The translations under genes and the position numbers were made by a program. From Candidatus Thorarchaeota archaeon (lineage in GTDB: Archaea; Asgardarchaeota; Thorarchaeia; Thorarchaeales; Thorarchaeaceae), in the NCBI GenBank assembly GCA_046482545.1, contig JAWOEX010000010.1:128001-192000 (forward strand): a stretch of DNA of 64,000 nt. Direction: 5' to 3'. This document shows positions 52,258 to 62,978 of this stretch, piece by piece (position 1 is the first letter of the stretch; every line of letters begins with the position of its first letter). The notes below the pieces were generated by a model. The model was not told the DNA's origin and did not search any database. It worked only from the letters and a program-made list of their open reading frames with translations.

Positions 52258-53088
52258 TCATGAGAACTTCGAAAAAACCTGCATCAACTGCTCTTTCTGA
52301 TAGTCTGTACCAAGAATCTGTATTCGGTCGAGCATGGCTTCGCCCAGACCTTCACGATAGGCACGGAGAATATGGTCAATAGCCAAAGGATCGATGCCAT
52401 ATAATCCAGCACAGAAAGCGTCAAGAGCCAGTATATCAAGGCCAAGGGCTACACCGCCCAAATGGCGAGTCTCTCTATTTTCTCTAGGTCCGATAATTAT
52501 TTCGGCTAAATCCATGACGGTGAGATCTGATTGATATGTACCAAGCAGGTCCATGAGTACATCGGTTATCTGGTCGTGGTATATCGATTTGTCTTCTTCA
52601 GGCAGCAAGCCGAAAAGGTTTTTGATGGCACCACTGTATGTGGAGATTTTGGGCTCAACCTTGGGAGTAGCAACATTGATGAAAAAGACGTTGCCATGCA
52701 GCAATTCGGGCATTTCTTTCTCTTCGAAATAGTTTCCGGGCATATCAACTGGAACCAATTCAGCCTCAGATAGATTGACAAGATTCACCCGATTGGACTC
52801 TAGTTCGTCATACCCGCATTTCGAGAATGCAGCCCAGGTGGTTCTTAGAGGGTTGTCACTCTCGACTATATAGACAGGTGCAACCTCTTCAAAAGAGTAC
52901 ACAATTGCCTTAAGTAGCTCCAATGAAGTGTTTCCGGGTAAATCAGGATCATAAATTGAGGGTTTGATTAAAATTCGGTCCAGAGGGCTCTGAAACGGAA
53001 GGGGTTCAGTCATCTTTGAAAGGGCCTTGTTGAGTGTCTCCCGTGGGTTTCTACGAACGGCAATGGCCACTTGCGACCCTGAAATCAT
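52258..53088 (-). CDS. DUF362 domain protein
   Basis: ILIKP, ES, SGAIKNLFG, D..ALDA motifs. Confidence 0.85.
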   Translation of the reverse strand: MISGSQVAIAVRRNPRETLNKALSKMTEPLPFQSPLDRILIKPSIYDPDLPGNTSLELLKAIVYSFEEVAPVYIVESDNPLRTTWAAFSKCGYDELESNRVNLVNLSEAELVPVDMPGNYFEEKEMPELLHGNVFFINVATPKVEPKISTYSGAIKNLFGLLPEEDKSIYHDQITDVLMDLLGTYQSDLTVMDLAEIIIGPRENRETRHLGGVALGLDILALDAFCAGLYGIDPLAIDHILRAYREGLGEAMLDRIQILGTDYQKEQLMQVFSKFS

Positions 53089-53319
53089 ACCTGCCTTTAG
53101 CACAGACTAACCCTTTAAGTTGATGTTTTGCAGGTTAGAATCGCCATGACTCTAAGTGGTGACGAACGAACCAGATACTCGAGAATGCTGCCACTGAGGC
53201 ATTTTGATGAGAGCAAGATGGAGTCCATCAAAGAAACAAAGAGTTGCAGTGGCTGGCACTGGCGGTTTGGGATGCAACTTGCGCAGACTGCTTACTTCGT
53301 TCGGATTCGGACATATCAA

Positions 53320-53759
53320 GATAACCCGTTTCTTACAGTTGAGTGAGTGGATCCAACTGAGGAAACTTCTGTGTTCCACCCTTCCCCTGCCAGCGTCACC
53401 GCCCCCAAGGTACCCGTAGGCCCTCGGGTCAGCAGGGGCTTTGTCCACGTTCACCGGAATAGGATTCCTCCCGCGGTCCTGGCTTCCTTCTCCTGTCGAA
53501 CTCCGGTACATCACTCCCGGCGACAGCGAGTTCTTCCACAGTTCTTACCACGGCGTGGTCATGATCACCCACCTCAGCCTTGTCGCCGTAGCTGAGGAGA
53601 TCCATCTGGACATGGTGAACAGCCGCGGACTCTCCAGGGTCTGATGGGACCCCTCGTTCGGAGAGTAAGGACTTCTGCTTAGAAGACGACGTCTTCCTCA
53701 CAGCCTTCGGGGCTGGGCGCTTCTCCCGTGGGGGAGTGGCTCACCGCCCTAGTCCTACT
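53320..53759 (-). ncRNA. Candidate ~440-nt structured RNA, copy A
   Basis: TTTATTAG box 22 nt before AGTAGGAC; many stems shared with copy B through compensatory changes. Confidence 0.6.
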
Positions 53760-54005
53760 AGACCGGACTCCCGTACTAGGCCTAATAAACTCCCCTGCTT
53801 GAGAGAGAATCGTTACAGGAAATCTTACAGATATTTTACACTTTTCCACTCGGATTTTTTACGATTTTTGTAAAATTTACCCTTTCAAGACCTTTGTAAA
53901 TCGTACAGAATCCTAAATAAATCAGCACAGTAGAGTGTAAGATTTCATCGAGCCCTTTTCGTGACCAAAAAGGAGTTTAGTAGACAGACAACCGTACTGG
54001 ATATC

Positions 54006-54441
54006 AGTAGGACCAGGCAAGTGGGCTAGCGCAGAAGCGCGAAGCACGCGGCTGAAAGATGTGAGGAAGTCCTGTGATTCTAAGCGGAAGTCCTTACTCT
54101 CCACAAAGAGAGCTTCATCGAACTCAGGAGGGTCCGCGGCTGTTCACCATGTCCAGATGGACCTTCTCATCTACGCTGACAAGGCTTATTCGGGTGATTG
54201 TGACCACGCCATGGTAAGAACTGTGGGAAACGTCGTTATCGCCGGAGTGACGACCCGGGATGACGACGGGAGGATGAAGCCAAGACCGCAGGAGGAATCC
54301 CAATCCGATGAACGTGTGCAAAGCCTCTGCTTGCTCAAGGACTGAGAAGTATCTTGGGGCGGCGACCTTAGCAGGGGAAGGATGGAACACAGGAGTTTCC
54401 TCAGTTGGATTCACTCACTCAACTGTAAGAAACATGTTATC
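54006..54441 (+). ncRNA. Candidate ~436-nt structured RNA, copy B
   Basis: TTTAGTAG box (53976-53983) 22 nt before AGTAGGAC; same stems as copy A. Confidence 0.6.
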
Positions 54442-54622
54442 CGGAGCTACTTCGAATCGTGACTGGAATTCAAGTGCGTGAAGCGGTACTGCTCGCTACA
54501 TCTCGCAAGACCGAGCATATGGAGGTGCTGATGACAGTAGACTTGACTTCGCTAACTGTTGATAGGTTTGAAATTGCAAAGGATGCCAACTGCAAGATTT
54601 GCTCTTGATTAAAGATACAATC

Positions 54623-55654
54623 CTATGCTCCGAAGAAGAGTCTTCTGGCTCTCTTTCTCCGCTCATCTTCGTCTTCTTCACCTTGGGGCGGTGGTGGTGG
54701 TGGAGGTTCGGAGCGATTTTGCTTCTTAGAAGATTCGTTTTGGTCAACCTTGCCTTCTTCGTCATGGACTTCTCTCTCAACTACACTTGTTGATTCATCT
54801 GATGCTTTCTCTTCAACTGAGGAGTCGTCCAATGGACTCCGGGTCTCTTCCTTTTCGGGGGGACTATCTGATTCCTTTTCGGAGGCTCCATATGGTGAAG
54901 CTACCCTAGGAGTCAATGCATCTTCATAGTCGTCCCAGCTAAAATCATCTTCCGTTTCTTCTTCTGATTCAGGTGCCATAGTATCTTCTGATGTTTCCAT
55001 TGAGGAGGGGACTTGATCGGAAGATTCGATTTCAGTTTCGGCTTCCTCAGTGGGTTGCTCATATTCATCCTCCTCGGCAGTTGATTTCATAGATTCTGGT
55101 TCAGCAAGGTGGAACTCCTTCGTGAAATCCTTGAAGGTTTCAGGCTCTGAAGGTTCTTCATCAGTGGATACGGACTTCTCGCCTTCTACGGGTTCAGCAA
55201 CATCTGATTCTGAGACCGAAGCAGATTCTTGTGTTTCGGAATCTTCTGGGAACAAATCCATTTCTGTGTCTAATCCTTTCTCCTCACTCACAACACTTGG
55301 TGCAACTGATTCTCCAGTTGGCATTTCGAAAGAGGGTTCTTCTAGCGATGCAGAGGGTGTTTCAGTCACGCTTTCATCGGTAGGAACCTCGTCGCTGAAA
55401 CTGGGCTCTTCAACCAACTCACTGGATGATTCTACTGGAAGACCTTCTTCATCATCACGAAAGTTAATACCCAAAGCATAGCTTAAGCATTCCTCGCAGC
55501 GTTTTGCAGCTGCAATGAGACCGTCATTGATGAAATCATCGAGACTTCTGGCTCGGTCAGGGTGGCGTTGAGACCACTTGAGAAAACTGTCTACCATACG
55601 CAAAGCGTCTCGGACTCCAAGCCAATATGATTCGTCCTTTTTATGTGAAGTCAA
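54623..55654 (-). CDS. Protein with helical N-terminus, long acidic disordered region and polyproline tail
   Basis: E/S/D-rich middle; EPPPPPPPQ..RARRLFFGA C-terminus. Confidence 0.85.
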   Translation of the reverse strand: MTSHKKDESYWLGVRDALRMVDSFLKWSQRHPDRARSLDDFINDGLIAAAKRCEECLSYALGINFRDDEEGLPVESSSELVEEPSFSDEVPTDESVTETPSASLEEPSFEMPTGESVAPSVVSEEKGLDTEMDLFPEDSETQESASVSESDVAEPVEGEKSVSTDEEPSEPETFKDFTKEFHLAEPESMKSTAEEDEYEQPTEEAETEIESSDQVPSSMETSEDTMAPESEEETEDDFSWDDYEDALTPRVASPYGASEKESDSPPEKEETRSPLDDSSVEEKASDESTSVVEREVHDEEGKVDQNESSKKQNRSEPPPPPPPQGEEDEDERRKRARRLFFGA

Positions 55655-62920: not shown

Positions 62921-62978
62921 GGTAACAGGAAATCTTACACTTCTATGCGCCGATTTATTTAGGATTCTGTAAGATTTC
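62921..62978. repeat. GAAATCTTACA..TGTAAGATTTC inverted repeat, homologous to the spacer of the 53-54 kb element
   Basis: 62930-62977 is a near reverse complement of 53898-53945; 11-bp perfect IR at 62929-62939/62968-62978. Confidence 0.8.

Follow-up and report, generated by a model that had tools for sequence, protein, structure and literature searches.

Why do two promoter-like boxes that point away from each other in an archaeal genome stand at exactly the same distance from the same conserved sequence? The question is raised by positions 53,320 to 54,441 of a 64,000-nt stretch of DNA (the window) from the Asgard archaeon Candidatus Thorarchaeota (assembly GCA_046482545.1, contig JAWOEX010000010.1, positions 128,001 to 192,000). 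There, an A/T-rich spacer of 246 nt (53760-54005) separates copy A on the minus strand from copy B on the plus strand; the two are inverted copies of an element of ~435 nt and are 82-85% identical. An earlier note on this DNA proposed that each unit carries its own archaeal-type promoter. The analysis described here indicates that the units are probably stand-alone copies of the omega (guide) RNA of a Thorarchaeota TnpB transposon family, which use an archaeal promoter of their own and are loaded by TnpB in trans.

Promoter-like boxes and the RNA that follows them

The motifs GGGGAG-TTTATTAG in copy A and AAGGAG-TTTAGTAG in copy B are present as the earlier note described them, each exactly 22 nt before the conserved anchor AGTAGGAC. 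A search with nhmmer found 93 matches to the element in the host genome (3.05 Mb in 45 contigs, 98.9% complete). These are spread over many contigs, frequently at contig ends; 48 are near full length and 45 are partial. Box and anchor could both be scored in 30 genome copies, and the spacing, which the note had singled out as a feature to check, is 22 nt in 29 of them and 20 nt in the other. The octamer matches TTTATTAG perfectly in 15 copies, with one mismatch in 10 and two in 5. Such recurrence of box and spacing is far above chance. The 22-nt interval itself is poorly conserved overall, as claimed, except that an AGTAC core recurs directly after the box.

The canonical place of the archaeal TATA box is the -30 to -23 region. 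When the A of AGTAGGAC is taken as +1, the octamer spans exactly -30 to -23, with its centre at about -26.5. The sequence at the predicted start also has the expected pyrimidine/purine form, with C or T at -1 and A at +1 in all 30 scored copies.

What follows the predicted start is a structured RNA. RNAalifold predicts 127 pairs from 47 genome copies, of which 89.5% are canonical, and many show two-sided changes. Compensatory changes occur in 44 of 84 predicted pairs in a second alignment, A2, which combines genome copies with copies from other Thorarchaeota metagenome-assembled genomes (MAGs; 68 sequences). Controls in which the 3' partner was slid by 1-3 columns lose most of this signal: canonical pairs drop from 95.1% to 38-47%, pairs with at least three double changes from 32 to 10-12, and double-change cells from 501 to 85-127. 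Folding of single sequences is uninformative (z-scores -1.0 and -1.6), and the structure is visible from the alignment only. A 3' hairpin (A2 columns ~430-450) carries GTTCACTCA; many copies of this genome have the shorter variant CAGTTCCTAGAACTG instead.

The RNA is an uncatalogued family. Over this region Rfam gave no match at the gathering threshold, and only chance hits at E<=10, so that neither the curated omega RNA nor the haloarchaeal sense overlapping transcript RNA (sotRNA) families are represented. No tRNA was found in the window. A group II intron or another known large non-coding RNA was considered and ruled out, as no such model matched.

It is extremely improbable that the units instead encode a small protein. 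Open reading frames (ORFs) of 90 and 94 aa do occupy equivalent positions (53429-53701, minus strand, and 54061-54345, plus strand), and they are a remnant of the C-terminal tail frame of tnpB. However, they have no Pfam match, copies A and B differ by a 1-nt indel, and substitutions track base pairing. The first in-frame stops among copies lie anywhere from 4 to 111 codons in, and within 24 codons in 10 of 25 cases. The Pfam result and these scattered stops led us to reject a protein-coding reading, in agreement with the earlier claim that no ORF logic stands behind the units.

Linkage to TnpB and the source of transcription

A search of the genome for the TNB domain of TnpB found six ORFs with PF07282 (Cas12f1-like TNB), with open frames of 302-628 aa. 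All six lie directly upstream of an element copy on the same strand and extend 78-417 nt into it. A TnpB omega RNA, also called right-end RNA (reRNA), is defined by its overlap with the 3' end of tnpB and its extension up to the element's right end. The RNA described here is therefore the omega RNA scaffold of TnpB. The other ~40 copies lack tnpB, such that stand-alone copies outnumber tnpB copies by ~7 to 1, and no recurrent neighbour gene accompanies these stand-alone copies.

The linked proteins match solved TnpB and Cas12f structures in the Protein Data Bank. All six keep GIDLG (RuvC-I) and NADRNG (RuvC-III), and have YVAIGRLK at RuvC-II, with Gly in place of Glu. This replacement, in proteins that keep the RuvC-I Asp and the RuvC-III NADxN motif, suggests that they are of the rearranged RuvC-II (RIIr) type, which Altae-Tran et al. 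2023 (PMC10691335) consider presumably active. Linked TnpB proteins of 545-623 aa are encoded at loci L157 (343-1980, plus strand, 545 aa), L158 (1153-2832, minus strand) and L154 (881-2752, minus strand). The omega-RNA region itself encodes a low-complexity tail of ~100 aa in TnpB.

The genome has one gene for a Y1 TnpA (PF01797, C24:6161-6457), which adjoins no copy of the element, and no gene for Cas1 (PF01867) was found at this level of completeness. By BLAST, the family is multicopy throughout; among 24 other genomes from the same taxonomic family, 16 have it, and these represent 9 genera. The 16 genomes searched from other families of the phylum gave no match, a negative that is limited by the sensitivity of BLAST.

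Where a copy carries the gene, the scaffold covers the final 260-420 nt of tnpB, and the RNA would arise as part of the tnpB transcript or be derived from it. In stand-alone copies, a left-end module of ~130 nt would replace tnpB and end in an archaeal promoter. We infer that RNA polymerase recruited by TBP and TFB starts at, or within a few nucleotides of, 53759 (minus strand) and 54006 (plus strand). Transcription would then cover the scaffold and enter the flanking DNA, which would serve as the source of the guide. The stand-alone RNAs would presumably be loaded in trans by TnpB that is produced from other loci of the genome.

Comparison of the two kinds of copies places a boundary near the predicted start. 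They are homologous only from GGACTAGG on, 4 nt downstream of the predicted +1. Ahead of this point, coding sequence and a CTCAC..GTGAG hairpin are found in linked copies, and the box with its 22-nt interval in stand-alone copies. In other Thorarchaeota MAGs, the same RNA is preceded by at least six modules that are unrelated, and each again contains a purine run and an A/T-rich octamer, at 20-28 nt from GGACTAGG. The runs are purine-rich as in copies A and B, and the GGAG type recurs among them. That one arrangement returns with different sequences argues for selection on function. Putative promoter modules that differ between lineages were seen at loci L037, L081, L055, L075, L073, L078, L034, L121, L098 and L102, among others.

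An unlikely alternative is that the copies are decaying tnpB relics, in which the box is inherited coding sequence, the RNA comes from read-through or from other copies, and no promoter is under selection. The octamer does align with tnpB codons (..R-L-I-K/T-L..) in linked copies, as TTTGATTAAG, CTCATTAC or CTTATTAT, fragments and deletion variants are many (45 of the 93 matches are partial), and one intermediate carries a 5'-truncated tnpB. However, helices are kept by compensatory changes while the coding frames decay, and the octamer has shifted towards the TATA consensus at a gap that is fixed in all but one scored copy. The unrelated modules, which also place an A/T octamer at 20-28 nt, and RNA contigs that are specific to the copy A locus and absent from its flank (see below) count further against inheritance without selection. 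In view of the alignment with tnpB codons, the box may have its origin in a promoter, cryptic or real, inside the 3' end of tnpB, which was sharpened towards the TATA consensus after the gene was lost.

The intermediate, locus L007 (C28:70300-72400), begins with a left end of the stand-alone type (GAAATCTTACA .. TGTAGGATTTC TGTAAGATTCC). Next come ~650 nt of different sequence, then a tnpB that is frameshifted and truncated at its 5' side (aa 244-544), and then the omega RNA. A simple internal deletion was rejected as the origin of stand-alone copies, because full-length tnpB copies have a different left end (GAGTTCA..TGAACTC..GAAACAGGTTAGAG).

RNA from the locus itself was sought as exact-match contigs in salt-lake metatranscriptomes (three runs, from three studies). 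Copy A is covered 11-43x over 53378-53752. The left flank (53100-53261) is uncovered in each of the three RNA runs and has 10.9x in a DNA run, so the copy A signal is not DNA carry-over. Depth reaches 2237x over the most conserved segment; this figure mixes many copies and organisms, and is not used as an expression level. One contig stops at 53750-53752, 7-9 nt inside the predicted +1, where it is joined to the Illumina adapter AGATCGGAAGAGC ((AG)ATCGGAAGAGC). A contig that runs into adapter indicates that many inserts end at this place. Such an end would be expected if library chemistry had trimmed the 5' end, and equally if the end is a processed one. With respect to the predicted start, the RNA contigs are supportive, not decisive.

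They also bear on where else transcription could begin. The RNA might start further upstream in the A/T-rich left-end module, for example at TAAAATAT, in which case the box and the 22 nt would be transcribed and could form a 5' hairpin like CTCAC..GTGAG. Such a hairpin stands just before GGACTAGG in tnpB-linked copies and in one stand-alone class of other MAGs, short palindromes occur within some 22-nt intervals, and one RNA-run record spans 53871-54021. An upstream start is nevertheless very unlikely, given that the spacer has zero cover over 53753-53963 in two of the three RNA runs and that the contig over copy A ends against adapter. Moreover, neither consistent pairing nor covariation is seen in the 22 nt, and homology with linked copies begins only at GGACTAGG. 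The stand-alone class in question keeps its 5' hairpin as CTCATA..TATGAG, in the same place as the tnpB-linked copies.

Several observations weigh against transcription of stand-alone omega RNAs from promoters of their own. The contigs prove neither start nor strand, and the contig end inside the predicted +1 could be a processing site. Copy B has a depth of 2-4x in the RNA runs, the same level as its flanks. The exact-match record at 53871-54021, 151 nt long, covers the left-end module of copy B, its TATA box and the first 16 nt of the RNA; possible sources are read-through at a low level, antisense RNA and residual DNA. Alignment of the octamer with tnpB coding sequence means that its conservation could be partly inherited rather than selected. 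The run GGGGAG is purine-rich, yet it is unlike the A-rich consensus of the TFB-recognition element (BRE), which comes from model archaea. The 60-nt regions upstream of 21 tRNA genes gave no clear box or position, and hence no promoter consensus specific to this genome. Finally, none of the omega or sotRNA families of Rfam was matched. On balance, the earlier proposal that selection acts on transcription starting near 53759 (minus strand) and 54006 (plus strand) is supported by the spacing, the homology boundary, the unrelated modules, the non-coding pattern and the RNA contigs together.

It is also conceivable, but hardly likely, that the host has taken over the stand-alone RNAs as guides for regulation or defence, in the manner of TldR or of CRISPR, and that they no longer serve transposon homing. 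The excess of stand-alone copies with their own promoters, the missing canonical RuvC-II glutamate (AIGRLK) and the presence of the family in 9 genera of one taxonomic family would all suit such a role. However, the Glu-to-Gly change is that of the published, presumably active type (PMC10691335), the RuvC-I and RuvC-III motifs are intact, and the guides are merely the adjacent flanks. Varied genomic contexts and target-site duplications (see below) are those of mobile DNA.

Element ends and the divergent layout

Conservation of the stand-alone element extends from ~135 nt upstream of AGTAGGAC to ...CTGTAAGAAAC(A/G)GGTTA. Past ...GGTTA(T), the right flanks of different copies are unrelated apart from T-C-N-N-G-A. 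The left module contains an inverted AAATCTTACA and tandem TGTAAAATATC/TGTAAGATTTC units, and the right end contains TGTAAGAAAC; the inverted AAATCTTACA on the left and TGTAAGAAAC on the right thus form short subterminal inverted repeats. The left-end motif is enriched at the left ends of elements, which account for 62 of its 147 hits in the genome.

The hexamer TCNNGA stands just outside both ends and is identical on both sides in ~17 of ~35 stand-alone elements. This 6-bp repeat is a target-site duplication. To our knowledge, classical IS200/IS605 elements make no such duplication, which implies that the enzyme or mechanism that mobilizes the stand-alone copies is different. At tnpB-linked copies, a hairpin and GAAACAGGTTA are present at both ends. 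Short, ORF-less and multicopy, with short inverted repeats (ATCTTACA / TGTAAGAA) and a target-site duplication, the stand-alone elements have the properties of miniature inverted-repeat transposable elements (MITEs). We tentatively suggest that they may constitute a distinct class of non-autonomous archaeal element. Members of this class would be MITE-like, with 6-bp TCNNGA duplications and a self-promoted TnpB guide RNA of ~430 nt as their sole cargo. They would spread by a cut or copy mechanism other than the peel-and-paste transposition of IS200/IS605, and would borrow TnpB in trans.

The ends also account for the orientation of copies A and B. Copy A has TCTTGA at both of its ends (53890->53885 and 53321->53316), and the left one is the TCAAGA hexamer that abuts the left end of copy B. 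The right hexamer of copy B is TCCGGA. On the simplest reading of the sequence, copy A would have inserted into a target hexamer of the palindromic TCNNGA type next to copy B, and the divergent layout would result from this insertion at the left-end hexamer of copy B. No second head-to-head pair was seen among the 93 genome matches. The description of the two promoters as firing divergently thus holds as geometry; it does not extend to a functional bidirectional unit, since this pair is the one case in the genome and insertion would account for its layout.

Table 1. Features of copies A and B in the window, and upstream modules of the same RNA elsewhere
Feature	Position	Strand	Remarks
Copy A scaffold, ~438 nt	53322-53759	-	AGTAGGAC to ...CTGTAAGAAACGGGTTA; covariation and exact-match RNA contigs
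Copy A anchor AGTAGGAC	53759-53752	-	
Copy A 22-nt interval, TATA box to predicted start	53760-53781	-	
Copy A TATA-like octamer TTTATTAG	53789->53782	-	
Copy A BRE-like purine run GGGGAG	53795->53790	-	
Copy A left-end module	53796-53884	-	Tandem TGTAAAATATC/TGTAAGATTTCC at 53840->53818; inverted partner AAATTTTACA at 53878->53869; kept in tnpB-less copies
Copy A right flank, predicted guide segment	53300-53321	-	Opens with 6-bp direct repeat TCTTGA, 53321->53316; putative guide role, from TnpB biology
Hexamer TCAAGA/TCTTGA common to both left ends	53885-53890		Left target-site duplication of copy A; abuts left end of copy B
Copy B left-end module	53891-53969	+	AAATCGTACA at 53898-53907; TGTAAGATTTC at 53937-53947; one unit, no tandem
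Copy B purine run AAGGAG	53970-53975	+	
Copy B TATA-like octamer TTTAGTAG	53976-53983	+	
Copy B 22-nt interval	53984-54005	+	
Copy B anchor AGTAGGAC	54006-54013	+	
Copy B scaffold, ~434 nt	54006-54439	+	AGTAGGAC to ...CTGTAAGAAACATGTTA
Copy B right flank, predicted guide segment	54440-54460	+	Starts TCCGGAGC; putative guide role
Module GGAG-TCTATATA / ATTATATA	22 nt to GGACTAGG		Other Thorarchaeota MAGs
Module GGGGTC-CTTATTAG	28 nt to GGACTAGG		Other Thorarchaeota MAGs
Module GAGGC-TTAAATAG	20 nt to GGACTAGG		Other Thorarchaeota MAGs
Module GGAG-AATAAATA	21 nt to GGACTAGG		Other Thorarchaeota MAGs
Module GGAG-CTTAAATG	21 nt to GGACTAGG		Other Thorarchaeota MAGs
Module GAG-CTCATATA	27 nt to GGACTAGG		Other Thorarchaeota MAGs

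Modules that resemble the left end also occur alone, away from omega-RNA copies. They are found at 62929-62978 of the window (C20:190929/190968) and at C20:236682, C28:141621, C32:36913 and C33:20579, and consist either of an inverted GAAATCTTACA and a direct TGTAAGATTTC ~39 nt apart, or of tandem units. The right flank of copy C18_4762 (C18:5198 onward, TCAAGAATAGACAAGTTCTAC...) resembles another left-end start, which suggests that elements inserted in tandem, or one within another, at the same target motif.

Around the pair, the gene at 52258-53103 (minus strand) encodes a DUF362 protein. The gene at 54623-55654 (minus strand) has no Pfam match, and the same is true of the four ORFs that flank the pair (53128-53346 and 54459-54780 of the window).

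Significance and comparison with known systems

If the stand-alone elements do form a class of the kind suggested above, guide genes in Asgard archaea would change and multiply on their own, apart from the nuclease gene, and would amount to a dispersed 'guide library' that is free of CRISPR. The loss of tnpB, with a promoter at the 5' end of the RNA taking over, would be a route by which a transposon guide RNA becomes an independent gene. Related lineages appear to have reached the own-promoter solution several times, with different upstream modules. The family also offers a concrete, testable promoter architecture for an Asgard lineage, with ~30 natural 'replicates' in which spacing is fixed and the sequence between box and start varies. 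A large scaffold combined with a TnpB whose catalytic site is rearranged may interest those who mine genomes for compact RNA-guided nucleases. For annotation, the family accounts for ~90 unannotated repeats in this genome and for many more across Thorarchaeota.

As in other archaeal BRE/TATA promoters, the predicted promoters have an A/T-rich octamer centred at about -26/-27, an upstream purine-rich element and a pyrimidine/purine initiator. They differ in that the BRE-like runs (GGGGAG, AAGGAG and the GGAG type) are G-rich and not A-rich, in comparison with a consensus that derives from model archaea and has no experimental counterpart for Thorarchaeota.

The RNA itself resembles the TnpB omega RNAs or reRNAs of IS200/IS605 elements (the obligate mobile element-guided activity, or OMEGA, systems), including the haloarchaeal sotRNAs RF02656 and RF02657. 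In all of these, a structured RNA overlaps the 3' end of tnpB, stops at the right end of the element and is followed by a variable flank that would be the guide, and TnpB has a TNB/zinc-ribbon domain and RuvC motifs. The omega RNA of ISDra2 is roughly 130-230 nt. The scaffold described here, at ~430 nt, is about twice the usual size of a TnpB omega RNA, and TnpB is long as well (544-623 aa), with a tail of ~100 aa that the RNA region encodes. Haloarchaeal sotRNAs reportedly arise by processing of the tnpB transcript (PMC12558985), whereas the stand-alone copies described here would have their own promoter.

Stand-alone omega RNAs as such are already known. Those of Altae-Tran et al. 2021 are mobilized copies that lack an effector, reside in genomes that also have effector loci and are reported to act in trans, as summarized in PMC10691335. 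The Thorarchaeota copies share the coexistence of effector-less copies and effector-carrying loci in one genome. They differ in belonging to an Asgard archaeon, in their ~7 to 1 excess over tnpB, in a BRE/TATA-type promoter at a fixed 22 nt, and in a distinct left-end module with 6-bp flanking direct repeats. None of the papers found in a literature search describes stand-alone omega RNAs with promoters of their own in Asgard archaea. What is new is the fixed archaeal promoter, the size of the scaffold, the excess over tnpB, and the MITE-like ends with target duplications.

A second Asgard-specific TnpB system is that of the aCas1-TnpB loci (Cas1H-Asgard-1/2), in which a conserved GTTCACTCA lies beside a hypervariable stretch downstream of tnpB (PMC10691335). 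The same motif is present in the 3' hairpin of the RNA described here. However, this genome is without Cas1, and the variable stretch comes after the motif (past ...GGTTAT) instead of before it.

Finally, the stand-alone elements compare closely with MITEs and with palindrome-associated transposable elements (PATEs). Conserved ends, subterminal inverted repeats and target-site duplications on short, multicopy, ORF-less DNA are common features, although we know of no target duplication at the PATEs of IS200/IS605. Unlike these elements, the Thorarchaeota copies carry as cargo a large, expressed gene for a structured RNA, with what is probably a promoter of its own.

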